DNA of 64,000 bases from an uncultured delta proteobacterium (lineage in GTDB: Bacteria; Desulfobacterota; Binatia; UBA9968). Where the stretch lies: NCBI GenBank assembly GCA_963745035.1, contig CAVUVW010000013.1:1504001-1568000 (forward strand). The letters are read 5' to 3'. Numbering within the stretch: position 1 is the stretch's first letter; the number at the start of each line of letters is the position of its first letter. The translations under genes and the position numbers were made by a program. Below are positions 10,574 through 26,285 of this stretch, piece after piece. The notes beneath the pieces were generated by a model. The model was not told the DNA's origin. It saw nothing but the letters and a program-made list of their open reading frames with translations, and did no database searches.

Positions 10574-11686
10574 TCAAGAGGAGTGTGCTTCGGCCCGACG
10601 CTGCTCGATGGAGTAGCGCACGAGCGCAGCGTAGCGGTAGATCACGTGGGCGAATTTGCCGTAGGGCGCGGTTATGAAAAATCCGGCGACGAAGCCCAAG
10701 TGGATGACCAGCAGTGTTCCCATGGCGGAAGTTTCGCGGAATGCCAACAGCAAAAGTCCGGTGAGGCTGGTCGAAAATAGCAGCACGAGAAACGCCACGT
10801 CCATGTTGAGCATGGTCGAATCGGCGGGCGCGCGGTCGCTTTGCCATTTTAGATAGAGCAATCCGGCCGGACCGATCAACAGGCCGATGCCGCCGAGAGT
10901 GCCGAGAACCACCGGTGCGCTGAAGTAGGGATAAGGTGCCTGCCAGCCGAGGAAGTGATCGTAGAAAGCCGCGATCGTAGTTGCGGCCAGGTCGAGCAGA
11001 AATCCGAAGAAGGTCAGGTGGTGATACCACATCCGCGAAAGTGAAAAGCTCTCACCGGGATAGTTGCAGCCGGCGCCGCCACCTTTCATGTAAGCCAAAC
11101 CGAAAGCGTCTTTGGTCGCGCGCCAAAAAGCCGAAAAGTCGACCAGCTCTGTCGGCCGTCCGCCGGTTTCGCGCCAGAAACGTATCGTCCCTATCGCAAA
11201 AACTCCAAAACCGTAGAGCGCGATGAGCGATGGCGGCACGGTCATCGCGACAAACGGTACGACGCGGTAGAACGCGCCTTCGCCTAGATGTATCGCGAAC
11301 AGCGCATCCGGACCTTGGAACGCGAGCACAAGTCCAAGAATCAGCACGATGGAAGCGGCGGTGATCAGAGTCACTGCCATGGCGTTATGTTTAAAGAGGC
11401 TCGACAAGATCGCCGGCCAGGTGAACTCGCGATAGGTATCGGTGCGCAGCTCGGCCATCAGCTTGGGAATATTCACGCCGAACTCGTGCGGCGGCGCGTA
11501 CTGGCAGGCGTAGTAACAGTCGCGGCAATCGAAACAGAGATTGGCGAGATAAGTGAGATCGGCTTTGGTGAAGATCCGCCGCTGCTCCATCGCCGGAAAA
11601 ACCGCGCAGTACCCTTCGCAGTAGCGGCAAGCGTTGCAGATCGTCATCTGCCGCGCGCCATCTTTGATAAGATCAGAATCCGGCAC
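10574..11686 (-). CDS. tcuB: Tricarballylate utilization 4Fe-4S membrane protein
   Basis: CNACRYCEGYCAVFPA and CFDCRDCYYACQYAPPHEF motifs; TM helices; PYGKFAH; overlaps tcuA stop. Confidence 0.93.
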   Translation of the reverse strand: MPDSDLIKDGARQMTICNACRYCEGYCAVFPAMEQRRIFTKADLTYLANLCFDCRDCYYACQYAPPHEFGVNIPKLMAELRTDTYREFTWPAILSSLFKHNAMAVTLITAASIVLILGLVLAFQGPDALFAIHLGEGAFYRVVPFVAMTVPPSLIALYGFGVFAIGTIRFWRETGGRPTELVDFSAFWRATKDAFGLAYMKGGGAGCNYPGESFSLSRMWYHHLTFFGFLLDLAATTIAAFYDHFLGWQAPYPYFSAPVVLGTLGGIGLLIGPAGLLYLKWQSDRAPADSTMLNMDVAFLVLLFSTSLTGLLLLAFRETSAMGTLLVIHLGFVAGFFITAPYGKFAHVIYRYAALVRYSIEQRRAEAHSS

Positions 11687-13071
11687 AGCGCGCCGCCTCC
11701 CGCCCGGCGATTCTACCGAACACCGAGCCGATGGTGAGACCGAAGCCTGCGAGATAGCCCCGGCCCAGAATGTTTCCGGCCATCACTTCGCCCGCCGCGA
11801 AGACATTTTTCGCCGGCCGATCGTCCTGCATGATCACCTGTGCTTGCTCGTTCACCGTTACGCCTAAATAAGTAAAAGTAATTCCCGGCCGGAGCGGATA
11901 GCCGTAGTACGGCGGCGTATCGATCGGGCGGGCCCAATGACTCTTCGGCGGCGTGAGCCCTTCCGTGCGGCATTCATCCAAACTCCCAGGATCGAACTTC
12001 CCGGTTCGCACGGAACGATTGAATGCATCGACGACTTCCGAAAGTTTGCCCGAATCGATTTCCAACGCCTTGGCAAGGTCAGATATCGAACCCGCTTCGA
12101 CCGGCGGAAACACCGACGGCATGAAGTGCGGCAATCCTTTGGCATCGACGATGGAATAAGCGATCTGCCCGGGCTGTTCGGCGATGAGCTTCCCCCAGAT
12201 CGCGTAGCGCTTCGGCCAGAAATCTTCGCCCTCGTCGTAAAACCGCTTTACTTCCTTGTTGACGACGATGCCGAACGGCACGCTGTCCAAGCGCGTCACG
12301 ATGCCGCCGTCGAATTTCGGCGCGCGCGCATCGAGCGCCACGGCGTGGCAGCCGCGCGGATCGCCCTCCGGTTTGGCGCCGTGTTTGAGCAACTCCTTCA
12401 GCATGCCTCCCTTATTGTGCGGCGTGCCCCGGATGATGAAATTGTCCGCGGCGTCGCCCCAGTATTCCTTCAGCCAGGGAATATTTGCTTCAAAGCCACC
12501 GCTGGCGACGACGAGCGTCTTCGCCCCGTATTCATTTGACGCGCCATTCCGACTCGCCACAGCAGAGGCAAATTGGCCATCGATCATTTTCAATTCACGC
12601 ACCTCGGTTTCATAGGCGACCTTCACGCCCAGCTTTGTCGCCGTGTCATAGTAGGCGTTCATCATCGCCTTGCCGCCGCCGAGCATGAACAGATTGCTGC
12701 GCGTGAGATGGAGCGTGCCGCGCAGCGGCTTTTGCCAACGCACTCCGTTGGCCGGCATCCAATCGCCCAGCGTTTCGGATTCACGAATGGTCAAGCGGGC
12801 CAGGCGCTCGTTGGTCGCTCCGCCGGTAACACCGAGAAGATCTCGCCAAAATTCTTCTTCAGTCGTAAGCGGCGGTGACGAACTCGGTGGCGGCGCGATG
12901 CATGTATCGGATATCGCGCGTGTGGCGGCTATTGCCGCCGCGAAAATCTTTGGTCGCGCATTCGAGCACGAGCACGCTGGCCCCGGCGCGCCGCGCCGTG
13001 ATCGCCGCGCACAACGCCGCGTTGCCGCCGCCGACGACGAGCACGTCGTAATGATGATTTGGATCCGGCAT
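11673..13071 (-). CDS. tcuA: FAD-dependent tricarballylate dehydrogenase (one frameshift near 12860)
   Basis: DVLVVGGGNAALCAA, GGNSRHTR, DARAPKFDGGIVTRLD, WPKRYAIWG, GNILGRGYLAGFG; ORFs 12859-13098 and 11673-12794 join by one indel. Confidence 0.92.
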
Positions 13072-13182
13072 CGAAGAATTCGTTTCCTTAAAGCGCATTC
13101 ACCACGAAGTAAATCATGACCTTACGCTCGCCCACAGAGAATCAAAATGGGGAGTTCCCACGGACGATTCTCTCCGCCACTC

Positions 13183-13255
13183 GTCATTCCCGCGCACGCG
13201 GGAATCCGCTTTGTTTTGTCAAATCGGCCTGGATACCCGCTTTCGCGGGTATGAC
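13183..13255. repeat. REP/REPIN-like doublet (GTCATTCCCGCG...GCGGGTATGAC)
   Basis: Two inverted short palindromes separated by a spacer, forming a long hairpin. Confidence 0.75.
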
Positions 13256-13315
13256 GGAACCCAACCGCTACCCCATCATCTGCTGCAATTCCGCACCCGT
13301 ACTTTTCGAAGGAGC

Positions 13316-13403
13316 GCACAAAGGGCACGAAGAATTGGATCAGCGGGTTTAAATGCCGCCTCCTCCAGTCGAGACCTTCGTGTTCTTCGTGCCTTCGTGG
13401 TGA
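13316..13403. repeat. Inverted-repeat element, CACGAAG...CTTCGTG family
   Basis: GCACAAAGGGCACGAAG ... CTTCGTGTTCTTCGTGCCTTCGTGGTGA; related arms at 37826-37852 and 38072-38092. Confidence 0.55.
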
Positions 13404-13497
13404 GTTATAACTTAGTCGATGGCGCATTCACAACGAGGCGCTTTGACTTACGCTCGCCTTCTACGCTATGCAAACTGCAGCGAACGGGAGGAGATTC

Positions 13498-14616
13498 ATG
13501 ATGAACCGCCATTCGAAACGACTATGGGCGGCATTATTTGTCGCGGCATTTCTTATCATTCCAAGCGTAGTCCATTCGGCCGAGGCGCCGGAAGATTGGA
13601 AGAGAACCATTGAAGCGGCCAAGCGCGAAGGCAAGGTCGTTGTCGGCGGTCCGCCCACCAGCGTGCTACGGCAAAAATTCAAAGAGACTTTCGAGAAGCG
13701 CTTTGGCATCGAGATGGAGCTCCTCTCCGCGCCGGGGCCGCAGAACGCGTCGCGCGCCATGTCCGAGTTCAAAGCCGGCGTTAAGTATTTCGACGCGCTG
13801 CACGGCGGCTCCGGCACGCTCGAGCCGCTGATGCGCGAGAACGCCCTCGCGCCGTTCATGGATTTCGTCATTCTCCCGGAAGTCAAAGACCCCCGCCAGT
13901 GGTGGGGCGGGCACATGTGGGAAGACAACATCAAAACCAATCGCTTCATTTACTCGTACTCCGCGGATTTCTCGACTCCACCCTTCTACAACGCGGATCT
14001 CGTCAAGCCCGACGAAGTCAAATCGTACGACGACTTTCTAAATCCCAAATGGAAAAACAAGATCGGGTTTTTCGAGCCGCGCATTCCCAGCGCCGGCCAG
14101 GGGTTGTGGGGATTCTTGATGAAGATCAAGGGCAAGGAGTTTTTACAGAAGCTTGTCAATCAGGAATTATTCATCAGCCGCGACGGAAAGCAGCTCGCCG
14201 ATTCCATGTCCAAGGGGAACCTCGCTTTCAACCTCGGCCAATCGCAGCGCTTCATCGAGCCTTATTTGAAAGCTGGAATTCCGATCAAGCCGCTCAACAA
14301 CATCAAAGAGGGTCTGAGCGGCAGCAACGGCTTCGGCACGGTCGCGATCATGAAGAACGCCGCGCAACCGAACGCGGCGAAGGTCTACATCAACTGGTTG
14401 CTCGGGAAAGAAGGCCAGGATCTCTACAGCCAGGCGCTCACCCAAGGCACGCGCCGCCTCGATGTCGACACCAAATGGCTGGCTAAGTTCGATTCATCGG
14501 CCGCCAAGGACGTCATGACGCCGGAAGAGTTCGAGAAAGTCCGTTTCTACGGCGAAGACATCATCAAGAACTGGCGCGAGCCCGGCGGCGAATTCGCGCG
14601 TCAGATCATCAAGTAA
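13498..14616 (+). CDS. Extracellular solute-binding protein (Fe3+/AfuA-like family)
   Basis: WKRTIEAAKREGKVVVGGPP, LNPKWKNKI, PNAAKVYINWLL motifs; signal peptide; GGAGG RBS. Confidence 0.85.
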   Translation: MMNRHSKRLWAALFVAAFLIIPSVVHSAEAPEDWKRTIEAAKREGKVVVGGPPTSVLRQKFKETFEKRFGIEMELLSAPGPQNASRAMSEFKAGVKYFDALHGGSGTLEPLMRENALAPFMDFVILPEVKDPRQWWGGHMWEDNIKTNRFIYSYSADFSTPPFYNADLVKPDEVKSYDDFLNPKWKNKIGFFEPRIPSAGQGLWGFLMKIKGKEFLQKLVNQELFISRDGKQLADSMSKGNLAFNLGQSQRFIEPYLKAGIPIKPLNNIKEGLSGSNGFGTVAIMKNAAQPNAAKVYINWLLGKEGQDLYSQALTQGTRRLDVDTKWLAKFDSSAAKDVMTPEEFEKVRFYGEDIIKNWREPGGEFARQIIK

Positions 14617-14696
14617 GCAGATCAAAAAGCGGCCCGGGCGTGGTGGCACAATAATGCCCGGGTGACTTTGAAATATAGCCATATTCTAGATATATT

Positions 14697-14954
14697 GTGT
14701 CCATGAACATAGTCAATGTCGCCACCTTAAAGGAAAAACTTAGTTATTATCTCCGCTTGGTTAAGAAGGGAGAAGAAGTTATCATCATCTCCCATCGCCA
14801 TCCGGTTGGCCGCATACTTCCCGCGGCGGCCGAAACGCTTCAAATTCGCCAGCCTCGCCGGCCGGTGAGTAACCTGTCGTTGATCAAAGGCATACGGCTA
14901 AAGCGGTCATCCTCCGCCGTAAAAACATTGTTGGAAGATCGCCGGCGACGATGA
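14697..14954 (+). CDS. Phd/YefM family antitoxin
   Basis: VNVATLKEKLSYYLRLVKKGEEVIII..HPVGRI; ATGA overlap with the PIN gene. Confidence 0.88.
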   Translation: MSMNIVNVATLKEKLSYYLRLVKKGEEVIIISHRHPVGRILPAAAETLQIRQPRRPVSNLSLIKGIRLKRSSSAVKTLLEDRRRR

Positions 14955-15367
14955 CTGTTTATCTGGATACCTCCGTTATTCTCAGGATCCTATTCCGCGA
15001 AGGCAACCCCGTTTCCGTCTGGAAAAAATGGGACAAAGCATACAGCAGCGCTTTGTGGCGCGTCGAGGCGCTAAGAACCACAGATCGCTTGCGCCTCACT
15101 CAGGAGATCACAGATATCGAAGTGGCGGCTCTCGTGCGCGAGATTCAAGTCATCGACGACACTTTGGCCATCTGCGCCATCGATGAAAAAATTCTGCAAC
15201 GCGCGGGCGAAACCTTTCCTACTGTGGTTGGAACGCTCGACGCGATTCATCTGGCCAGTGCGCTTAAAATCCGTGAGATCGACGCCTTGGATGCGCTACT
15301 AACTCACGACCTTCAGCTCGCCACAGCAGCGAGAAGCCTTGGATTCAATGTCATTGGCGCTGCGTAA
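14951..15367 (+). CDS. vapC: VapC/PIN domain toxin
   Basis: VYLDTSVIL, TLDAIHLASA and THDLQL PIN motifs. Confidence 0.88.
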   Translation: MTVYLDTSVILRILFREGNPVSVWKKWDKAYSSALWRVEALRTTDRLRLTQEITDIEVAALVREIQVIDDTLAICAIDEKILQRAGETFPTVVGTLDAIHLASALKIREIDALDALLTHDLQLATAARSLGFNVIGAA

Positions 15368-15414
15368 AAAAGAATCGCTGCCATGACCGTGCTTCTCATA
15401 GAGGGAGATTTCCG

Positions 15415-16133
15415 ATGCGCTACGAGCTTTACTATTGGCCGTCGATCCAGGGCCGCGGCGAGTTTGTTCGTCTCGCGCTCGAAGACGCGGGCGCCGACTA
15501 TGTCGATGTCGCGCGCAAACCGAAAGGCATGGCGGCGATGGAGCGGCTGATGGAGAGCCGCTCCATCGACCATCCGCCTTACGCGCCCCCGTTCTTGAAA
15601 GCCGGCAAGCTTCTCATCGCGCAGACCGCGAACATCCTTTTGTATCTTGGACCGCGGCTGGGTCTGGTTCCAAACAGTGATCCGATCAGGTTGTGGGCGC
15701 ACCAGCTCCAACTCACGATCGCCGATTGGGTCGCCGAGGCCCATGACACGCATCATCCGATCGCGAGCAGTCTTTACTACGAGGATCAGAGAGACGAAGC
15801 CAAGCGGCGCGCCGCTGATTTCACCGCCGAGCGCATGCCGAAATATCTCGGTTACTTCGAAAGAATACTCAAGCGCAATCCGAAAGGAGGCGAGCTATCT
15901 TCTTGGGAAAAAGGTTTCCTATGTCGATCTCTCGTTGTTTCAAGTGATCGAAGGCTTACGCTACGCGTTCCCGCGCGCCATGGAGCGGCTCGAAGCCAAA
16001 CATCCGACTGTCGATCGCACTGCGCGATCGCATCGCTGCGCGGCCGCGATTGGCTGCGTATCTCTCATCGGAACGTCGCATCGCTTTCAATCAAGATGGC
16101 ATCTTTCGCCACTACCCCGAGCTCGATGATTGA
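15415..16133 (+). CDS. Glutathione S-transferase (frameshifts near 15895 and 16015)
   Basis: YELYYWPSIQGRGEFVRLALE, APPFLK, AQTANIL; C-terminus FNQDGIFRHYPELDD lies in a shifted frame. Confidence 0.85.
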
Positions 16134-16190
16134 GGATTGCCAAAGCCGCTGATTGGTTTACATTGAAAAACTAATCAAGGAGGTCCAATC

Positions 16191-16850
16191 ATGGCAATCG
16201 AACTTTACTGGGGCAGCGGCAGTCCGTTCGCGTGGCGCGTGATGTTGACCCTCGAAGTGAAAGGGCTCGCGTACGAATCGAAGTTGCTGGAGTTCTCCAA
16301 AGGCGACCACAAAACGCCGTCCTATCTACAGCTCAATCCGCGCGGCAAAGTACCGACGCTCAAAGACGGCGAGTTCGTTGTCTACGAATCGCTTGCCATG
16401 ATGGCTTATCTCGATCGCAAATATCCCGATCCGCCGCTCTTCGGTAAAACTCCCGAAGAGACAGGTCTCATTTGGCAAGCGCTATCGGAATGTGAGTCGT
16501 ATCTCGTTAGCGCCGGCGACAAGGTCGTCCGGCCGCTCTTCTTCGGCAAGGGCTTGGACAAGGTCGATGAAATTCAACAAGCGGCGCAAACGATTCGCCA
16601 GGAGTGGAAATCCATCGATGCGCGCCTCGCCCGATCGAATTGGCTGGTCGGCACGCAGATTTCCGCGGCGGATATCACCGTCTTTCCCGTGGTGCAATTG
16701 CTTTTACGCGCAGCGTCCAAAGAGGCGGCCCAGCCGCTTGATCTGGGGTTGATGCCTTTGTCGCAAACTTATCCGAATCTCGCCCGTTGGGTTCGGCAAA
16801 TCGAAGCCCTGCCCGGCTACGAGCGCACCTATCCACCCCACTGGCGATAA
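16191..16850 (+). CDS. Glutathione S-transferase family protein
   Basis: WGSGSPFAWRV, LNPRGKVPTL, YESLA, ISAADI, TYPPHW; AAGGAGG RBS. Confidence 0.92.
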   Translation: MAIELYWGSGSPFAWRVMLTLEVKGLAYESKLLEFSKGDHKTPSYLQLNPRGKVPTLKDGEFVVYESLAMMAYLDRKYPDPPLFGKTPEETGLIWQALSECESYLVSAGDKVVRPLFFGKGLDKVDEIQQAAQTIRQEWKSIDARLARSNWLVGTQISAADITVFPVVQLLLRAASKEAAQPLDLGLMPLSQTYPNLARWVRQIEALPGYERTYPPHWR

Positions 16851-16889
16851 TCGATTCGTCCTCGATTTCGCAGACCTCGCGGAGGTCCA

Positions 16890-17866
16890 ATGCACCATCT
16901 GGCGGAATTTATCAAGCGAATCCTTCTCGTCTTGATCATATTGATCGCGGCGCCAAGGCGACGCCGCGGAACGCGCCAAGCTCACTCTTGGCTATTCCAG
17001 CACCGGACCGACCGGCGTTGGATTGTGGGTGGCAAAGGACATCGGCGCTTTCGACAAATACGGCGTCGACCCCAATCTTGTTTTCATTTCTTCCGGTCCG
17101 GTGATGGTTCCCGCGCTGATCGGCGGCGACGTCCAGGCCGCCGTCGCCGGAGCGAACGCGGTGATCGCCGCGGTGCTCGGCGGCGCGCCGATCGTATCGG
17201 TAGCGAGCCTCGCCAATCGTCCCTATCTACGACTTTGGGTTCACCCCGAGGTTACTCGCGTCGAAGAGCTGCGCGGCAAGACTTTCGGGGTGTCCCGCTT
17301 CGGCGCGACGACGGATAATTTGACGAGAATTCTTCTGCGCCGGGTCGGCCTGGAAAACGCCGTGACCATCCGCCAGCTCGGCGGCACGCTCGAAGTCGGA
17401 CTCGCTTTTCGCCACCGGCAGATCGACGGCGCGGTTCTCGCGACTCTCCGCACCGACGTGCCGCATCGAATTTTGATCGAGCTCGCCGAATCGGGCATTC
17501 AATATTCCATGGGGCAGCTCGCTGTCTCGCGTGACTTTCAACGCCGCTCTCCGGACACGCTCGAGAAAATCATGCGCGCCTACCTCGAAGGCGTTGCGGT
17601 AGTGCGCGACCCCAACCAGAAAGAGCGCGTGCTCAAGACATTAGTGCGTTATACGCGGCTCAAGGAAAGCAAGGCGATCGAAGAGATCTACAGCGACGCT
17701 TTCAAGTACGTCGATCGCGTTCCACGCGTCGAAGCTGAAGCTGTTTCCGCGACGTTGGAATTCATGGGCAAAAAAGGCCTGCCGGTCGAAACCTTCGCGG
17801 ACAATTCCATCATCGACCGCTTGGTAAAGGAAGGGTTTCGTCGATCAGCTGTACAAAAAAAGGTAG
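16890..17866 (+). CDS. NitT/TauT ABC substrate-binding protein (frameshifted)
   Basis: GGAGG-ATG 16890; LWVAKDIGAFDKYG, ELRGKTFGVSRFG, DNSIIDRLVKEGF; indels near 16960-16990 and 17835. Confidence 0.8.
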
Positions 17867-17871
17867 TCGGC

Positions 17872-18753
17872 CTAGCAATTACAGCGCAGTGAAAATTCGT
17901 TTTCTCTATCGAGCAGCGACTCGCCGATCGCTTGATGATCGGCGACATGGCGCGAGACCGTGCTCAATCCTCTGCGATAGAGATCCTTGACCTCTTCTTC
18001 CCAGTCGCGCCGGCCGTTGCCGGACCACTGAAACGGCAGCTCGAGGATTTTCCAGGGAGGGACAAACGCCGGGGCGGAGGCCAGCGCCGCGCGCAAGATT
18101 TCACGCTGGAGCTCCGGCTCATTGGGTTTTCCCGCAGGACAGCCTAGCGGAAAGTCCAGAAACACCGTGCGCGGCGGCTTGAAGGCCATGCTGACCTCCC
18201 ACAGCGTGCTCATCGAGAGCGTGGGCAAACCTCGCGCTTCGAGAGCCCGCGCGATCAGTCCGACGGACCGATGACAGGCGGGTCAGAACGGGAAGAGAAA
18301 AACCAGGTCGACGCCTTGGCGGTCAAATTCGTCCTTGATAGCGGGAACGGTGGTCTTTAGCAGCTCGGTAAATTTGCTGATCGATCCCACCATCGAAACG
18401 GCTCGCGGAGCGAGCCCGCCGATAACGCCTTCGGCTTCCAGCTCGACCAGCCGGTCGCGCGGAAACGCAACGTTCATATCTTCGAGAGCCCAGCGTCGAA
18501 CCGGCGTCTGATGGGCGATCGTGAGCTCCGAGTAGGGCGTCCGGCGATCGATCAGGCGGTAGGACAGATCATTGGTTTCATTCAGAGGAGCGTCGTCGCG
18601 CAATTGAACGCCTGCGCTCGTGAAGATACCGATGGTCGATTGAGAAATGGGCTTGCGCAGCGGCGTGAGCCGGGGCGGCGCAAAATTGGGCTGCCGGGGA
18701 TAAGGCTGCGGCGCCATGAGCTCGGTCATGAATTGGACGTAGCTGAACGGCAA
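17872..18753 (-). CDS. PrdB/GrdB-like (glycine/betaine/D-proline reductase B family) selenoprotein, UxxC motif
   Basis: ORFs 18283-18753 and 17872-18228 are in the same frame and separated only by TGA (18285-18283); read-through gives VDLVFLFPF-U-PACHRSVGLIARALEARGLPT...KPPRTVFLDFPLG; N-terminal motifs TSAGV and DMNVAFPRDRL match the family. Confidence 0.85.
18246..18282 (-). promoter_or_regulatory. Putative bacterial SECIS element
   Basis: Directly 3' of the UGA: CCCGC-CUGUC-AUCGGUCC-GUC-GGACUGAU-CGC-GCGGG, with an 8-bp upper stem and a G-containing loop. Confidence 0.7.
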
Positions 18754-18943
18754 AGCGTTCCCTCCTCACAAGGTGGAACGATTCATCAATACGTCCATCG
18801 CAAGACCGCAGTCAATCGATCTTCTCAGGACTTGCTCCAAGCCTCCTCTTGACTCACCGTTTGCGCTTGTCTTACCTTGCGCTTGGCTGTCGTCTGTCTA
18901 TGATGGTCTGGAAATTCCGCCGGCGAACGGGAGAGGAAAACAC

Positions 18944-20080
18944 ATGATGGAGAACACGCTGCTCGATGCCGACTCGCACGTGAGCGAGCCGTTGAATCTT
19001 TGGCGGGAACGTCTGCCGGCAAAGTACCGGGACATCGCTCCGCACATGGAGACGGAGTATCAGGGCCGTCCCGGCGCCTGGTGGTTCATCGAGCAAGATC
19101 GCCAGCCGCACAACGTGATCTTGGGCTTTGGGGCGAACAAATCGCTCGAAGAGCTGCAGCAGCTATTGAAAAGTTTTTCCTACGCCGGAGCACATCGCGG
19201 CGGTTGGGACCCGGCGCAGCGAGTCAAAGACATGGACCAGGACGGCGTCGCAGGCGACATTCTCTACACGACCTTGGGCTTTCGCATGTTCTGGATCCGG
19301 GACGCTGGATTTCAAAGAGCCTGCTTCCAGGTTTACAACGACTGGCTCGCGGAATTCTGCGCCCATTCGCCCAAACGTCTCAAAGGCTTGGCGCTCATCT
19401 CGCTCTATGATCCGAAGCAGGCGGCCGAAGATTTAGCGGCCTGCGCCAAAAAAGGCTTGGCCGGCGCGCTGGTTTGGGCTTCCCCGCCGGAAGAGCTGCC
19501 ATTCTATTCGGAGGACTACGATCCCTTCTGGGCAGCCGCCCAGGAGCTGTCGATGCCTCTCAGCCTGCACGAATTCGCCGGCTTTCAGTGGGTCGATTGG
19601 GATTCGAGCGCGAAGAAACGAACCATAGCCGCCGGCATCAATTCGCAGGAAGTGGAAAAGACTTTTTCCACTCTGATACTCTCCGGCGTACTCGAGAGAT
19701 TTCCCCGCCTCAACGTGGTCTCGGCGGAGTTGAACTGCGGTTGGCTGCCCTACTTTCTCCGCCGCCTGGACGAGCGCTTCGAGGCGCGCGGCGTTCGCGT
19801 TCACGGCAGCGCCTTCGCTACGAAATTGACGCTCAAGCCGAGCGAATATTTTCGCCGCCAGCTTTACGCGACATTCATCGACGACCGCTTCGGCATCGCG
19901 CATCGAAATGACATCGGCGTGGAGAACTTGCTCTGGTCATCGGACTTTCCCCACAGCGCGACGTTCTGGCCCCATTCGCGGGAAAAAATCGCGAAAGACT
20001 TCCAGGATGTCGGCGCCGAGGACAAACAAAAAATTCTCTGGCAAAACACCGCAAAACTGTACCGCTTCGACGTGGAATGA
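18944..20080 (+). CDS. Amidohydrolase 2 family protein
   Basis: DADSHVSEP, DMDQDGV, YDPFWAAA, GVLERFPRL, WSSDFPH motifs. Confidence 0.9.
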   Translation: MMENTLLDADSHVSEPLNLWRERLPAKYRDIAPHMETEYQGRPGAWWFIEQDRQPHNVILGFGANKSLEELQQLLKSFSYAGAHRGGWDPAQRVKDMDQDGVAGDILYTTLGFRMFWIRDAGFQRACFQVYNDWLAEFCAHSPKRLKGLALISLYDPKQAAEDLAACAKKGLAGALVWASPPEELPFYSEDYDPFWAAAQELSMPLSLHEFAGFQWVDWDSSAKKRTIAAGINSQEVEKTFSTLILSGVLERFPRLNVVSAELNCGWLPYFLRRLDERFEARGVRVHGSAFATKLTLKPSEYFRRQLYATFIDDRFGIAHRNDIGVENLLWSSDFPHSATFWPHSREKIAKDFQDVGAEDKQKILWQNTAKLYRFDVE

Positions 20081-20207
20081 CGGCGACGCGTTGTTGATCT
20101 CAGCCGTTGGAAATTCCTCTGTCTCCCCCTTTTTGGGGAAAAACTGCGGACCATTCCGAAATATTGAGTTGTGTTCTTGCGCGGGAGGATTTTAGTCCGT
20201 GGGTTAT

Positions 20208-20274
20208 TACCCCTCTTTGACAAAGAGGGGTGAGGGGAGATTTCTCACTGATCACCAAAAATCCCCCTCAATCC
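20208..20274. repeat. REP-like element, CCCCTCTTTG..CAAAGAGGGG family
   Basis: Hairpin CCCCTCTTTGACAAAGAGGGG followed by GAGGGGAGATTT...AAATCCCCCTC. Confidence 0.55.
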
Positions 20275-20312
20275 GGCCTCGTGCCCTTTTTACTGAAGCT
20301 CGCACAGATGCT

Positions 20313-20342
20313 TTGACAATTACTGAACGCAAGACTAAGAAT
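20313..20342 (+). promoter_or_regulatory. Putative sigma70 promoter of the LLM-VOC-SBP operon
   Basis: TTGACA (20313-20318), 17 bp, TAAGAAT; about 30 bp before ATG 20372. Confidence 0.45.
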
Positions 20343-20371
20343 CGAACGATCACCACAACGAGGGAACCCGC

Positions 20372-21460
20372 ATGCAGTTCGGGCTTTTTTCCAACGGCGA
20401 AAGACACAATCAAGTCGCCAAGGTCACCTACGACGAGGATTTGGCCGAAGTCATTCTGGCCGATGAGCTCGGCTTACAGGAGGCATGGATCAGCGAGCAC
20501 GGAACGTTCGTCAGCTTCCACGCGCCGGACCAACTTCCCTGCGCCGATCCGTTTATTTGCAAGGCCGCGGCTCTGACCAAGCAGATCCGCATGGGGCCGG
20601 GCATCCGCCCGCTTCCCTACTTTCATCCTTTGCAGGTCGCCACCGACGCAGCGGTCTGCGATCACCTGACCAACGGCCGCTACATGGCCGGCTTCGGCGT
20701 CGGCCTCCCGGGCAAGACACCGCAGCGCGGCAAGCTTCCCGGCGATACCCGCGCCATGACCCGCGAAGCGATCGAGCTGATTCTCACCGCTTGGACCGCG
20801 ACCGAACCGTTCGACTGGCACGGCGAATTCTGGCAAGGCGAGCAACTGCACATCATCCCCCAGCCCTTGACCAAGCCGCACATGGAAGTCGGCATGGCTT
20901 GCTCGCGCAGCGAGGGAACCCTCGAGCTGACCGCGCAAAAGGGCTTCATTCCGCTCATGAGCTGGACGCCGCAATCCGGACAACTCAAAAACATGATCGA
21001 AATCTACCAGCGCGCCGGCGAGGAAGCGCAACGCCCCGCGCCGCGGAGCCGCGTGCGCGTCGCGCGCATGATCTACGTCACCGACTCGGTGGCGCAAGCC
21101 AAGCGCGATCTCAGCGGCATCGACCTCGGCGCCGCCAAAGTGACGCGCCGCCTCGATCAATACATTCCCGCAGGCGGCGCGCGTGACGACTTGACGATGG
21201 ATTACATGATCGATCGCGGCGCATTTTTCTGCGGCGATCCCGACACGGTCTATAACCAAATCAAAGAGCTGTACGACGAAACCGGCGGCTTCGGTGTTTT
21301 GCTTCTGCTCGCCGGCAAAGATTGGGGCAGCCACGAGCAGCGGCTGCGCTCAATGCGGCTTTTCATGTCCGAAGTTGCGCCACGGCTGACGCGGCTGAAT
21401 CCGGCCGCGGCGGCACAGAAGCAGTCCCCGATAGAATCGCATAGCTCACGGAGGTCATGA
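20372..21460 (+). CDS. LLM class (luciferase-like) flavin-dependent oxidoreductase
   Basis: ADELGLQEAWISEH, LPYFHPLQVA, DHLTNGRY, SMRLFMSEVAP motifs. Confidence 0.9.
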   Translation: MQFGLFSNGERHNQVAKVTYDEDLAEVILADELGLQEAWISEHGTFVSFHAPDQLPCADPFICKAAALTKQIRMGPGIRPLPYFHPLQVATDAAVCDHLTNGRYMAGFGVGLPGKTPQRGKLPGDTRAMTREAIELILTAWTATEPFDWHGEFWQGEQLHIIPQPLTKPHMEVGMACSRSEGTLELTAQKGFIPLMSWTPQSGQLKNMIEIYQRAGEEAQRPAPRSRVRVARMIYVTDSVAQAKRDLSGIDLGAAKVTRRLDQYIPAGGARDDLTMDYMIDRGAFFCGDPDTVYNQIKELYDETGGFGVLLLLAGKDWGSHEQRLRSMRLFMSEVAPRLTRLNPAAAAQKQSPIESHSSRRS

Positions 21461-22257
21461 TGTTCGCTCACATCAAACACGCAGCGATTTATACCCAGAA
21501 CCCGGGCGCGATGATCGCCTTCTATGAAAAGATTCTAGGCATGAAGCGAATCACCACCGCGGTGACCGAAGCCAATCGCGGCCACATCAGCGACGGGCTC
21601 ATCGGGCTGGCCGTGCTCGCAAGACGGCCGGGAATTCCGGGAGGCTTGGATCATTTCGGCTTTGAAGTCGACGATATCGAGACGGTGCTGCAAAGAATCA
21701 GAGACAAGTATCCGAAGACGATCATTACAAAAGGGCTTGAGAGAGTTCCGTTCGCGGTTTTTCGCAGCCACGACCCGGCCGGGGCACAGTTCGATATCTC
21801 CGAGCGCACCCACGAGAAAGTTCGCGAGGGTTACAAGGAAGACGGTTGGGATCAACCGCGCCAGTTCAACCACGTTGTGATTCGCGCCGCCGAGCCGAGG
21901 CAAATCGCGGAGTTCTACCAGGAAGTTTTCGAGCTCTTCGAAGTCAAGGAACCGCCGCTCGGCGATGCCGTCTGCCTGAGCGACGGCAAGGTTCGCCTGC
22001 TTATCCTGCCGACGAACAACAGCTCCTATATCAGCATGCGCCAGGGCCTCGATCACATCGGCTTCAAGGTCGAGAGCATCGAGCAAGCCAAGAAGGATCT
22101 CGATGCGCTGGCCGGTTCTGTGCCCGCGTCGGCAGCCAAGGATATCGGCGCCGGCATTTTCGGACATTTCACGAAGGCGGACATGGCAGCGTGCAAGATC
22201 GGCCAGTACGCCCTGGCCGATCCCGACGGCGTCCTGCTGGACTTTTCAGAAAACTGA
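21457..22257 (+). CDS. VOC/glyoxalase family protein (tandem domains)
   Basis: IKHAAI, GLDHFGFEV, GLDHIGFKV and DPDGVLLD motifs; ATGA overlap with the LLM gene. Confidence 0.85.
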   Translation: MMFAHIKHAAIYTQNPGAMIAFYEKILGMKRITTAVTEANRGHISDGLIGLAVLARRPGIPGGLDHFGFEVDDIETVLQRIRDKYPKTIITKGLERVPFAVFRSHDPAGAQFDISERTHEKVREGYKEDGWDQPRQFNHVVIRAAEPRQIAEFYQEVFELFEVKEPPLGDAVCLSDGKVRLLILPTNNSSYISMRQGLDHIGFKVESIEQAKKDLDALAGSVPASAAKDIGAGIFGHFTKADMAACKIGQYALADPDGVLLDFSEN

Positions 22258-22264
22258 TTGCGAC

Positions 22265-23222
22265 ATGGCGAATCCGAATCGAATCCGGATACTGTGTATC
22301 CTCGTCGGCGCTCTTTTGATCTGCGTTCCCGCGCCGGCGATTGCGCAGCAGCTCAACCCAGATTCATATCGGCGTGCCGACCAACACGGTGACTTGGTTC
22401 CCGCTCTACGTGGCGTGGAAGAAGGGAATTTTTCAGGAACAGGGCATCGAGATGCTGCCGGTCACGATGTCGGTGCGCGCTTCCCTTGGGGCTTTGGCGT
22501 CACGGCATATTTCCTACATCACGCCTCTCGGTTCCTCGATGACGGCGATCGCCAACGGCCTTCCCGCCAAAGTGATCATGATCTTCGCGGTGCGATCGCA
22601 TCACGTCCTCGTCTCCAAACGTGAGATCGTTGCGCCGAGCGCACTGCGCGGTCACGGCGTCGCTATCAGCCAACCCGGCGGCACGGTCCACCGGCAGTTC
22701 CTCAAAATTCTCGAGCACTACAAGGTCGATCCCAAAGACGTGAAGATGATCAACTTGGGGGAAATGCCGAACCGCGCTCTCGCTCTCAAAGCCGGCACCA
22801 TCGACGCGGCGATGTTGAGCGTGCCCTACGATCTGTTCATGGAGAAGGACGGTTTTAGACCGATCGCCTATCTGAAGGATATCCTGGAGTTTCCGCTTCT
22901 CGGATTGATCGCCCATGACGAGCGCATAAGAGAAAGACCGGACGAGGTCAAAAAAGTTTTGACCGCCGCGCTCAAGGGCATCGCTTATACCAAGACTCAT
23001 CGCGAAGAGGTGCTGCCACTGCTGAAACAGTTTGTCGGCCTGCCGACGGTCGACATGACCCGCAAAACCTATGACGTGATCAAAGAACTTTGGCCGGATA
23101 ATGGAATTCCGTCCGACAAGGGACTGGCGATCGCTCTGAGCATGGCCGACGTGCCGCCAAACTTTCCTCCTGCAAAGATGGTCGATTGGTCGCTCGTCAG
23201 GGAGGCGGCGAAAAGCCGCTGA
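22265..23222 (+). CDS. NitT/TauT ABC substrate-binding protein (frameshift near 22350)
   Basis: Signal peptide MANPNRIRILCILVGALLIC in one frame; FPLYVAWKKGIFQEQG...DWSLVREA in the next. Confidence 0.82.
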
Positions 23223-23266
23223 AGCAAACCGTTACGCCGTCGCACTCCACGGAAACTCGCTCGCAT

Positions 23267-23797
23267 TTATTTCTCCGCCGGAAACCAGCCCTGCTGTTTG
23301 ATCAAGCCACGCAGATATTCGATTTGTCCCGCGTGGCGCGTGTTGCAGTTGACGACGCTGGCCAGGCGAATGCTCAACGTCGGCAGCGGTTGATACTGCG
23401 GTTCGTCGAGCACGCGATTCAGATCGGCGTTCGAGACGCTCGCCAGATAGCTCTTGGTTTGGGCGAACACCGCGTCGAGATAGTCGAGCAGCAGCGGCTT
23501 GTCAGAGACCGTAAACGCCTCCACCTGCGCTCGCGTCTGCCTGTGGCCTGAGCCGTAATCTTTCGGATCCGCCGGCATGTGGAAGCGCGCATGCCAACCC
23601 TCGGCGATCCACAACTGCGGGCGATCCAACAGTCCGGAAAAGTTGGCATCTTGGACACGCGAAAGGTGCCAGACGAGCCAGGCGATATGCGGCCTGGGCG
23701 GGGCGAGCAACTCTTCCGGCGACAGATCCTTCAGCGCCTCGCGCACCATGTCGCGCACGCGCCCTAACGCATCTAGAACCAATCCGGCGGCTTCCAT
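23267..23797 (-). CDS. DinB family protein
   Basis: IAWLVWHLSRVQD and RHAGQIEYLRG motifs. Confidence 0.85.
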   Translation of the reverse strand: MEAAGLVLDALGRVRDMVREALKDLSPEELLAPPRPHIAWLVWHLSRVQDANFSGLLDRPQLWIAEGWHARFHMPADPKDYGSGHRQTRAQVEAFTVSDKPLLLDYLDAVFAQTKSYLASVSNADLNRVLDEPQYQPLPTLSIRLASVVNCNTRHAGQIEYLRGLIKQQGWFPAEK

Positions 23798-23982
23798 CCG
23801 TGACTTCCTCAAAGGCTATTATCGGTTTCACACTATCAGATGCCGGGTGGGTGCGGCGAGATGCAAGATCGCTTTTCAGTTAGCCATTCAAGGAACATCC
23901 CCCACTTGACGGCCATGATGCACCTGCCCTATCGTGCCGCTAGGTCGCCGGTCGCCCACCAACCCATCACAAGGAGGCAGTT

Positions 23983-25503
23983 ATGGGATTTCTTACCGCC
24001 GAGGAGCTGAATCAGTTATCGCCCGCCGAGACTTCCGCCTATCCATCGCCCATACCGACGCAATCGGTTTCGAGCGACGAATTCATGCCCGCGCCACAGA
24101 GCGAAAAGCAGCGCGAGTTCGAGGCGCGTATCAAAGAATTCGGCGGCAAGCTGGCGCGCCGGCAAGGCATGTCGCGGCGCGCCTTCTTCAAGACCGCCGC
24201 GGGCATGGCGGCGGCATTCGTGGCGATGAACGAAACCTACGGCCGCCTTTATGACGCGAGCCGGGCCGAGGCGGCGATTCCTGAGATGGCCGGCGAGCGC
24301 GCCAAGGCGCTGGCCAATCAATTCGTCATGGACATGCATACTCACTTTCTGCGCGACGATACGCGCATCACCAACTTCGTGCGCCAGCGCGAAGCCGTGG
24401 GAAAAGCCGGTTGGAACCCAGCGCTGCAAGGCAAGCCGCAGACCATCGAAGATCTGAAGTTCGCCAATTATTTTAAAGAAGTGTTTCTCGACAGCGACAC
24501 CAAAGTCGCGTGCATCAGCGGCTCGGCGTCGGAGGATCCGCGCGACTGGTTTTTGACCAACGAAATGAAGTTCGACGCGCGCGCCAAGGTCAACAAGGAA
24601 GCAGGAACGAAGCGCATGTTTTCTCACGCGATCATGACGCCGGGCCGGCCGGGCTGGCTCGACAAGGTCGATGAGGAGATGGAAAGGCTCAAGCCCGATT
24701 CGTGGAAGGGCTACACCATCGGCGACAACACCAACAAGCATTTGTCCAAGCATCCCTATCGCCTCGACGACGAAAAGATCATGTATCCGTTCTATGAACG
24801 GCTGGTGAAGTGGAGCAAAGACCATCCCGGCGTGGTCAACGTCTGCATCCACAAGGGACTTTTCCCGCCGTCGGTCGAAGGAAAATTCCCCCATCTGGTC
24901 GGCTACTGTCACGTCGGCGACGTCGGCAAGGCGGCAAAGGATTGGCCGCAGCTCAATTTCATTATTTACCATTCGGCTTATCGTTGGGCCGGTGGCGGCA
25001 CCGCCGAGGACGCCTGGGGCCAACTCAACCGCACCGGCCGTATCGAGTGGGTAAACGATCTCGCCGAAATCCCGGCGCAGTACGGCGTGAAGAACGTCTA
25101 CGGCGACTTGGGGCAGATTTTCGCCCAAAGCACCATGGCCGATCCGCGCGTGTGCGCGTTCATGATGGGAACACTCGTCAAAGGACTCGGATCCGACCAC
25201 GTCGTGTGGGGCTCGGATTCGGTCTGGACCGGTTCGCCGCAGTGGCAGATCGAAGCGCTGCGCCGGCTGGAGATCCCCGAAGAGATGCAGAAGAAGCACG
25301 GCTTTAAGCCGCTCGGCGCGGCGGACGGCCCGGTCAAGCGCGCTATTCTCGGCGAGAACAACGCGCGGCTCTACCAATTCAACCCGCAGCAGCGCACGTC
25401 GTTGGAAAACGACCGCTTTGCGCAGCTCAAAGCCGATTACGAAACCAACGGCGCGGCGCGCAGCAATCTGACCTACGGTTACATTTACAGGCCCAGGGTC
25501 TGA
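23983..25503 (+). CDS. Amidohydrolase family protein with Tat-like motif
   Basis: SRRAFFKTAAGMAAAF; DMHTH, SWKGYT, CIHKG, WGSDSVW..SPQWQIEA; AAGGAGG RBS. Confidence 0.88.
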   Translation: MGFLTAEELNQLSPAETSAYPSPIPTQSVSSDEFMPAPQSEKQREFEARIKEFGGKLARRQGMSRRAFFKTAAGMAAAFVAMNETYGRLYDASRAEAAIPEMAGERAKALANQFVMDMHTHFLRDDTRITNFVRQREAVGKAGWNPALQGKPQTIEDLKFANYFKEVFLDSDTKVACISGSASEDPRDWFLTNEMKFDARAKVNKEAGTKRMFSHAIMTPGRPGWLDKVDEEMERLKPDSWKGYTIGDNTNKHLSKHPYRLDDEKIMYPFYERLVKWSKDHPGVVNVCIHKGLFPPSVEGKFPHLVGYCHVGDVGKAAKDWPQLNFIIYHSAYRWAGGGTAEDAWGQLNRTGRIEWVNDLAEIPAQYGVKNVYGDLGQIFAQSTMADPRVCAFMMGTLVKGLGSDHVVWGSDSVWTGSPQWQIEALRRLEIPEEMQKKHGFKPLGAADGPVKRAILGENNARLYQFNPQQRTSLENDRFAQLKADYETNGAARSNLTYGYIYRPRV

Positions 25504-25592
25504 GGAGTTGGAGCTTGGCGGCGCCGCGATTCAGGGGGCGCCGCCATTCAACCCGGCGCGCAGGTCAAGCAATCAGTTTCTATGCGAACACC

Positions 25593-26285
25593 GTGGCAGA
25601 TGAATTAAAAATCCTCAGCGCGGGCGCGGTAAAACCGGGACTGACCAAAGTCATTGACGCCTTTCAGCGCGATCGCGCGGTAAGAGTTCAAGTCTCGTTC
25701 GCAACCGCGCCGGCGATCCGCAAGCAGATCGGCGCAGGCGAAATACCCGACGTCGTGATTGCGCCGGCAGACGTGGTCGCGGAAATCACTCGATCGGGAA
25801 AATGCGTCGCGGGCGCCACTGTAGTTATCGGTCAAATCGGCGTCGGCGTTTTCGTCCGAGACGGCGAGCGGCTGCCGGGAATCGCCACGGTCGAAAGCTT
25901 CAAGGAGTCTCTGCTCAGCGTAGAATCCGTCGTTTACAACCAGGCTTCGACAGGGACTTATCTTGAGGCGCTTTTCGAATCGCTCGGCATCGGCGCTGCG
26001 ATCAGGGGCAAATCGACACGCTATCCCGATTTCGCCACCGTCCTCGATCACGTCAGCAAAGGCATGGGCCGAGAAATCGGTCTAGGCGCGACCACCGTGA
26101 TTATCGAAAACGAGAAGCATGGAGTAAGATTCGCCGGGCCGCTGCCGGCTGAGATTCAGAACTACACATCTTACGTCGCGGCGATCACCGCCGAGAGCGA
26201 CGCAAGAGGGACCGCCCAGCAGTTCATGCGTTACATCGCATCTCCGGCGGCAAAATCTCTTCTAACCGCCGCCGGCATTCAGTAG
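25593..26285 (+). CDS. ModA-like (molybdate-type) substrate-binding protein
   Basis: LKILSAGAVKP, STGTYL and GPLPAEIQNYTSY motifs; start uncertain (ORF is open from 25515). Confidence 0.8.
   Translation: MADELKILSAGAVKPGLTKVIDAFQRDRAVRVQVSFATAPAIRKQIGAGEIPDVVIAPADVVAEITRSGKCVAGATVVIGQIGVGVFVRDGERLPGIATVESFKESLLSVESVVYNQASTGTYLEALFESLGIGAAIRGKSTRYPDFATVLDHVSKGMGREIGLGATTVIIENEKHGVRFAGPLPAEIQNYTSYVAAITAESDARGTAQQFMRYIASPAAKSLLTAAGIQ

Follow-up and report, generated by a model that had tools for sequence, protein, structure and literature searches.

A gene on the minus strand of the window, i.e., the whole 64,000-nucleotide stretch of DNA analyzed here, probably encodes a stand-alone selenoprotein of the PrdB/GrdB superfamily that is distinct from PrdB, is produced by recoding of an in-frame UGA to selenocysteine (Sec), and would act as a UxxC reductase recycled by its own C-terminal cysteines, with Sec as the older state of the active site. 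A probability of roughly 70% was given to this joint reading. Sequence comparison confirmed positions 17872-18753 as a real, mis-annotated single selenoprotein gene, the features of which are listed below, where A1 denotes an alignment of 16 homologs with cysteine (Cys) in the Sec column.

17872-18753, minus strand: PrdB-like selenoprotein gene with TTG start (18751-18753), Sec codon (18283-18285), and TAG stop (17872-17874), 293 residues
18761-18767, minus strand: GAGGAGG, Shine-Dalgarno-like and predicted from sequence, 7 nt 5' of the TTG start
18283-18285, minus strand: in-frame TGA, U157 of U-P-A-C-H, with TGA in 21/21 Sec-form orthologs and TGT/TGC in 35 Cys-form loci
18274-18276, minus strand: codon of C160, the presumed resolving Cys of UxxC, invariant in A1
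18254-18272, minus strand: SECIS-type hairpin with an 8-bp stem, a GUN loop, and a 10-nt spacer after the UGA, also coding for H161-R-S-V-G-L-I167
18139-18141, minus strand: codon of C205, in FLDFPLGCPAG, invariant in A1
17875-17883, minus strand: codons of C291-N-C293, the terminal motif, invariant in A1

Translation of 17872-18753 (minus strand) with TGA read as Sec gave 293 residues with one internal TGA and the motif LFPF-U-PACH, the product reading DLVFLFPF-U157-PACHRSVGLIARALEARGLPT around the Sec site, FLDFPLGCPAG further on, and FSLRCNC at its end. The sequence-only reading had joined two ORFs through a single TGA into one 293-aa protein containing FPF-U157-PACH, FPLGCP, and a terminal RCNC, and this was borne out by a single frame carrying the complete motif, by FPLGCP at residues 201-206, and by RCNC preceding the stop. 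Under translation table 11 the gene was split into a 156-aa and a 118-aa ORF, and the public protein collection held it solely as an unnamed 156-aa piece; the annotation is hereby corrected, the database entry being a fragment of a 293-residue protein. A promoter and terminator scan for the gene detected neither element. The TGA was checked against other sequencing and stood in contigs from three sequencing runs of three studies (X1, X5, and X15) that span 18283-18285 with no deviating letter listed, this evidence consisting of contigs rather than raw reads and one run possibly being the source sample. RNA-labelled runs covered small shares of the window and included one 145-nt contig within the gene (X16, 18074-18218), possibly from DNA carry-over.

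Homology searches identified 312 homologs and, among the 120 listed, most were 292-294 aa long with 56-65% identity and uninterrupted ORFs. The TGA column corresponded in A1 to an invariant Cys within an invariant P-F-C-P-x-C-H. A full-length ortholog with 63-87% identity was present in 7 of 40 related genomes, each with exactly one TGA at the U157 site, and a scan of species-representative genomes yielded 54 loci comprising 18 with TGA, 35 with TGT or TGC, and one partial locus. Homologs with TGA and homologs with Cys at column 157 were both found, the Cys homologs being single ORFs rather than two separate genes, and the TGA was kept at the same codon in all 21 distinct Sec-form orthologs with frames open on both sides, apart from an extra in-frame TAA in the copy at public locus L037 (identical to L022 and to the ortholog of genome G005, one of the seven). 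A frameshift was observed in the acidobacterial Cys form at L082, and these two cases represented occasional decayed copies or assembly errors. From ortholog pairs with unsaturated dS, dN/dS was 0.07-0.17 for codons 158-293 and 0.05-0.23 for codons 1-156; by these estimates the frame 3' of the TGA is under purifying selection.

Bacterial SECIS elements follow the rule, as in the description of bSECISearch, of a stem-loop that lies a short distance 3' of the UGA and has G/U at its apex. The hairpin CAUCGGUCC-GUC-GGACUGAUC (18254-18272, minus strand) agrees with this rule in having an 8-bp stem near the UGA and a GUN loop that begins 18 nt 3' of it, and at 3 nt this loop is on the small side for a bacterial element. 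A strong hairpin directly after the UGA had been claimed from the sequence; its presence was upheld and it was conserved in the Sec forms, but the single-sequence fold was unremarkable (76-nt z = -0.88, with 32 of 200 shuffles folding equally well). Across the 21 distinct Sec-form sequences the stem was paired in 168/168 cells, including a compensatory change from U-A to C-G in L023 and changes from G.U to A-U in L067, L069, and L079, and pairing fell to 0-53% once the 3' arm was shifted by one to three columns. Covariation was thin, as six of the eight pairs were invariant and the observed score was reached by 20 of 500 shuffles. More than 6/8 paired stem positions were found in none of the 35 Cys-form loci, and the mean local folding energy was -9.8 kcal/mol in Sec forms vs. 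-2.8 kcal/mol in Cys forms. The hairpin-coded peptide was fixed as H-R/Q-S-V-G-L-I/V in the Sec forms; the Cys forms were variable between the conserved His and I/V-A, most of them reading H-R-A. The hairpin was therefore considered convincing on the comparison of orthologs, chiefly the Cys-form control, the single sequence alone being insufficient. Its occurrence in all Sec forms examined and in no Cys form makes this a clean natural experiment within one orthologous group. The hairpin region matched no SECIS-type family in Rfam, and two Rfam matches on the plus strand (19019-19102 and 19162-19200) were dismissed as unrelated, outside the gene, and below gathering.

The genome contained selA, selB, selD, and tRNA-Sec. 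The three sel genes were clustered on contig C17 (315264-319742) with scores above curated cut-offs, selD had an in-frame TGA and thus coded for a Sec-containing SelD, and the tRNA-Sec (anticodon tca) was located on the same contig (371273-371367) approximately 52 kb from the cluster. With the Cys homologs, the TGA in orthologs, the hairpin tracking the TGA, the purifying selection, and the Sec machinery taken together, UGA-157 is a predicted Sec codon, and the earlier proposal of a hidden UxxC selenoprotein of the PrdB/GrdB superfamily stood on the TGA/Cys column, the hairpin, and the machinery. That the TGA is instead a true stop, with two genes, a pseudogene, or an assembly error behind it, is exceedingly improbable. 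Gene callers do give a 156-aa product and one ortholog copy (L037) has its additional TAA, but against this stand the TGA at that codon in 21 loci, flanked by open frame on both sides apart from the extra TAA of L037, the Cys in that column in 16 aligned proteins and 35 loci, a hairpin accompanying the TGA in 21/21 Sec forms and complete in 0/35 Cys forms, the purifying selection 3' of the TGA, and the concordant contigs of three studies. The comparative data and the agreeing contigs rule out sequencing error, pseudogene, and two separate genes for practical purposes.

Placement of the 293-aa protein in the superfamily was based on profile and profile-free searches. The best model was PrdB TIGR04483 (E = 3.8e-40 over residues 25-243), scoring 137.8 bits vs. 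a cut-off of 300, and PF07355 (GRDB; 19.5 bits, cut-off 22) and TIGR01918 (34.7 bits, cut-off 65.45) were likewise below threshold, TIGR01918 being one of several weak GrdB-type NCBIfam matches along with TIGR01917, NF040794, and NF040795. A profile-free search against 1.84 billion representatives returned 1349 clusters at E <= 0.001 and 373 at E <= 1e-10, and among 30 rescanned proteins (29 hits of this search plus the window genome's own paralog) P0172 alone was a true PrdB (453.2 bits), the others being PrdB-like and below the cut-off. Judged from these searches, the PrdB-like superfamily is large and mostly unnamed. The core in common with P0172 comprised D62, R66, H81, D92, D149, U157-x-x-C160-H161, E172, and R195; the corresponding signature DRHDD-CC-H-ER recurred across 87 full-length superfamily representatives, of which 57 had Cys at both 157 and 160. 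Superfamily homology was therefore clear despite the scores below cut-off, given the E-value of the PrdB model and the core residues in common.

The protein resembles PrdB of Clostridium sticklandii and Clostridioides difficile in its U-x-x-C-H motif, core residues, and insertion of Sec via an in-frame UGA, but differs in being without a PrdA partner and below the 300-bit cut-off, and in adding C205 and approximately 50 C-terminal residues that end in CxC. It belongs to the same superfamily as GrdB, GrdF, and GrdH (selenoprotein B of the glycine, sarcosine, and betaine reductases), as seen in the weak model matches, although those proteins are about 430-450 aa long and are encoded beside PF09338 partners whereas the 293-aa protein corresponds to the C-terminal catalytic part and is partnerless. 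Searching the PDB by sequence found no solved relative and Foldseek gave no PDB match at E <= 0.001, the best VIA-align Z of 8.3 was to generic Rossmann/flavodoxin-like alpha/beta domains and within the stated background of the tool, and the ESM Atlas queried with a Cys homolog returned the same family alone, under automatic names. The AlphaFold2 model was an alpha/beta domain with a mean pLDDT of 81.4 and a pTM of 0.83.

Domain fusions were observed in distant relatives, including an AMP-binding (adenylate-forming) domain with a PrdB-like domain (P0238 and P0267) and HTH_3 with a PrdB-like domain (P0154); transfer of function from these fusions was dropped because 27-36% identity was too distant. 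One member among P0238, P0267, P0154, and P0199 had a weak match to PF24696 ("UGSC family") immediately C-terminal to the Cys/Sec site, a hint of remote relatedness to marine UGSC selenoproteins.

Beyond the window, the genome encoded four long GrdB-like paralogs with one TGA each (C27:168027, C11:122401, C15:302964, and C13:702273), five genes of the GrdE/PrdA type (PF09338), each adjoining a long GrdB-like paralog and two with matches spanning a TGA (C11:123980 and C15:300967), and a grdA with a TGA at C13:1654710. Taken together, these genes suggest that the genome encodes several clusters for Grd-type reductases and a large set of selenoproteins. It also encoded a second PrdB-like selenoprotein that stands alone, of approximately 257 aa and with the motif PY-U-PFCH (C13:1804681-1805448; locus L015, 1501-2271), being 33% identical to the 293-aa protein and lacking both C205 and the CxC tail. 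Most of the 40 related genomes encoded a counterpart of this second protein; these counterparts aligned along most of the query at approximately 30-38% identity, and each contained one TGA or more.

The question of a partner was addressed through the gene neighborhood. The PrdB-like gene was monocistronic, divergent from an Amidohydro_2 gene (18773-20080), and convergent with a gene for an NMT1-type binding protein (17023-17892); further neighbors included a luciferase-like monooxygenase, a two-domain glyoxalase-fold protein, GSTs, a DinB/MST-like protein, and a Phd/PIN pair. The earlier statement that no prdA, grdA/C/D/E, or thioredoxin gene is adjacent held in a Pfam scan of 15 ORFs (10574-26285), which contained none of them, and the best match to PrdA (TIGR04480) in the genome scored 38.9 bits vs. 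a cut-off of 700 and lay on another contig. No PF09338 gene was near the PrdB-like gene, as all five sat by the other, long GrdB-like paralogs, and PF09338 had no match in five Cys-form genomes (three Acidobacteriota, one Lustribacter, and Amycolatopsis pigmentata), with the five matches in the window's own genome as the positive control. Across 56 loci no neighbor was conserved between phyla and neither a thioredoxin-type nor any other partner adjoined the gene. The protein would therefore stand alone and, with no pyruvoyl partner and with Cys-form genomes in which PF09338 was not found, the comparison of genomes indicates that it is not a D-proline reductase subunit.

The alternative that the protein is simply the B-type subunit of some Stickland-like reductase, working with a distally encoded PF09338 pyruvoyl proprotein and the GrdA from C13:1654710, was weighed in this light and is rated quite improbable. 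Its catalytic core does agree with PrdB, and the genome does hold five PF09338 genes and the TGA-containing grdA, but every one of those PF09338 genes adjoins a different, long GrdB-like paralog, the Cys-form genomes had zero PF09338 matches against five here, the score was far under the PrdB cut-off (137.8 vs. 300 bits), and the clade carries an extra C-terminal extension. The preferred reading of a stand-alone protein distinct from PrdB was retained.

Several neighbors were considered as partners and rejected. Amidohydro_2 adjoined the PrdB-like gene both in the Syntrophobacterales-type genus and in Acidobacteriota, but the window and acidobacterial copies were only about 22% identical and not orthologous; the window's Amidohydro_2 was 38% identical to paralogs of its own genome and 83-89% identical within the genus. 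NMT1-type binding proteins, the acidobacterial cytochrome c and PQQ dehydrogenase, and an OsmC-like gene (two loci) were lineage-specific and without a link. The sequence-only reading had described the surroundings as aerobic and catabolic, which fitted the amidohydrolase, luciferase-like monooxygenase, and glyoxalase-fold neighbors and the four COX1-family matches in the genome, but sat less well with a selenoprotein-rich lineage related to Thermodesulfobacteriota, Syntrophobacteraceae, and delta proteobacterium MAGs.

The close relatives of the protein formed a clade with the hallmarks of 293-295 residues, PF(U/C)PxCH, GCPAG, and a terminal CxC. C205 was missing from true PrdB and most superfamily members, and a terminal CxC was present in 4 of the 87 full-length superfamily representatives, these being the four nearest to the query. 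The C-terminal extension of approximately 50 residues was modeled as a helix (250-276) followed by the tail ending in CxC, with pLDDT below 50 for the last nine residues (41-48 for the tail), and the position of the tail was not placed by the model. As the C-terminal CxC was invariant in the clade, the earlier idea that the enzyme may be self-resolving through it appears reasonable; the reductive C-N or C-S cleavage suggested along with it would be a candidate chemistry. Mammalian thioredoxin reductase (GCUG) and class I ribonucleotide reductase offer an analogy, as each has a mobile dithiol or selenolthiol at its C-terminus that passes electrons between a buried redox center and an external partner. 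A similar role may apply to C291-x-C293, judging by its invariance and the low model confidence of the tail, although the folds of both enzymes are unrelated to that of the 293-aa protein.

The same residues might instead bind a metal (Zn or an Fe-S cluster), with C205, C291, and C293 joining C160 and H161 in a structural or redox-tuning/sensing site rather than a dithiol relay. Five invariant Cys/Sec residues with one invariant His, and the confinement of the terminal CxC to this clade, would suit such a site; it is nevertheless considered unlikely, since P0124, from a close cluster, kept the terminal CxC yet lacked C205, and the tail was predicted to be flexible.

Under the preferred reading of a relay through the C-terminal cysteines, UGA-157 would be recoded to Sec by SelB at the conserved hairpin 10 nt downstream, and the product would be a cytoplasmic selenol/thiol-dependent reductase. 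U157 would serve as the nucleophile attacking an electrophilic center of a small substrate, C160 would resolve the adduct to give a Se-S bond, and the flexible C291-x-C293 tail, perhaps with C205, would re-reduce this bond with equivalents from the cellular thiol system. In this scheme the protein would be a UxxC selenol/thiol reductase whose own C-terminal cysteines recycle it. In D-proline reductase, the PrdB Sec attacks the alpha-carbon of D-proline bound to the PrdA pyruvoyl and is re-reduced via PrdC, according to the available part of the source (PMC11229817). As the 293-aa protein would have no pyruvoyl group, its substrate would have to be electrophilic itself or activated otherwise. 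PrdB U151C is given as inactive in that part of the source (PMC11229817), in contrast to the natural Cys forms of the CxC-tailed clade, which implies a chemistry that tolerates sulfur.

A farther-reaching joint reading is put forward only tentatively, as a possibility. It would make the CxC-tailed clade a self-contained, pyruvoyl-independent reductase and a new enzyme type of the GrdB/PrdB superfamily, in which U/C157-C160 reductively cleaves a soil metabolite and the protein's own C-terminal dithiol arm recycles the site, Sec being ancestral and Cys arising with loss of the SECIS on the move into aerobic Acidobacteriota, Eremiobacterota-type lineages, and Actinomycetota.

The Sec forms were found in MAGs labelled delta proteobacterium, Thermodesulfobacteriota, Syntrophobacter(aceae), Binatia, Tectomicrobia, and a few Acidobacteriota, and the Cys forms in Acidobacteriota, Lustribacter/Vulcanimicrobiota, Rubrobacteraceae, and Amycolatopsis. 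Among 400 other genomes sampled across the same phylum, none was found to contain an ortholog at E <= 1e-70, so the distribution of the gene is patchy. The window itself was detected in metagenomes that several studies had obtained from soil and rhizosphere. In a quick maximum-likelihood tree of 55 rows, from which L037 (extra stop) and L082 (frameshifted) were excluded, the Sec forms were basal and paraphyletic with the Cys clades nested among them, and at least three state changes were required. The tree was rooted on the paralog from the window's own genome (33% identity), the very long branch of which leaves the root unsure. This topology and the near-identical hairpin across the Sec forms favor Sec as the older state and Cys as derived; Cys forms without the hairpin would then have arisen at least two times in aerobic soil phyla.

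Related proteins have been counted in environmental surveys since 2005, and this protein is a further member of that known kind, the stand-alone "PrdB" UxxC selenoproteins, as far as the accessible parts of those papers describe it. In the Sargasso Sea, proline reductase prdB (42 genes) ranked third in abundance among the selenoprotein families and was tabulated with the thiol-dependent redox selenoproteins that have UXXC (PMC1088965), and the GOS survey listed 235 PrdB selenoproteins and 110 Cys homologs, its accessible text being silent on "PrdA" (PMC2398784). Proline reductase selenoproteins were also attributed, in the available portions of two papers, to Anaeromyxobacter, Geobacter uraniumreducens, and the Olavius delta-1 symbiont (PMC1794560 and PMC1976440), and reviews from 2022 and 2026 contain the entry, in the portions available, solely as "D-proline reductase, TIGR04483, UxxC". 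The novelty claimed for the protein in the sequence-only reading was therefore overstated, as UxxC PrdB homologs outside Stickland fermenters were already catalogued in 2005 and 2008 in the portions available (PMC1088965 and PMC2398784). The Sargasso Sea and GOS families share with the 293-aa protein the occurrence of UxxC PrdB homologs in oxygenated, non-fermenting habitats, but the accessible text of these surveys pools all PrdB homologs and mentions no CxC-tailed clade, and their sets are marine whereas the CxC-tailed clade comes from soil and rhizosphere lineages. Among the accessible texts of the literature, no paper was found that sets partner-less PrdB-like forms apart or describes the CxC-tailed clade, although supplements may list members.

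Within the large "orphan PrdB" family, the biochemistry of which is unexplored, the present data delimit a clade that is amenable to study. Cys forms occur in the cultured actinomycete Amycolatopsis pigmentata, as two copies (L080 and L083), making genetics and enzymology feasible, and the CxC extension, the hairpin-Sec link, and the cultured Cys-form hosts offer a reasonable entry point to the function of partner-less PrdB-like proteins, a question that has stood since the first counts in 2005, going by the accessible parts of the surveys.

Further observations concerned the neighboring genes. Amidohydro_2 (PF04909) had 153 matches in the 7.4 Mb genome, a very large expansion that included 18773-20080 and 23983-25503 in the window. 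Several acidobacterial loci (L045, L053, L059, L062, and others) shared a gene string of a small secreted CxxCH-heme protein, with the heme motif at its C-terminus, the Cys-form PrdB-like protein, Amidohydro_2, a diheme cytochrome c, and a PQQ dehydrogenase. Within the window, a VapBC-like pair (14697-15367, plus strand) encoded a Phd/YefM-type antitoxin (85 aa) and a PIN-domain toxin (138 aa) with a 4-nt overlap. It was followed by a GST-like ORF (15415-16152, plus strand) in which the GST C-terminal model matched residues 110-157 only and the last approximately 80 residues looked out-of-frame, so that this ORF may be frameshifted, and then by an intact GST (16191-16850). The NMT1-type ORF (17023-17892, plus strand) began at profile position 8 with no evident signal peptide in its first residues, and its 5' part was overlapped by an arginine-rich 142-aa ORF (16890-17318); its 5' end may reflect a wrong start or a frameshift.
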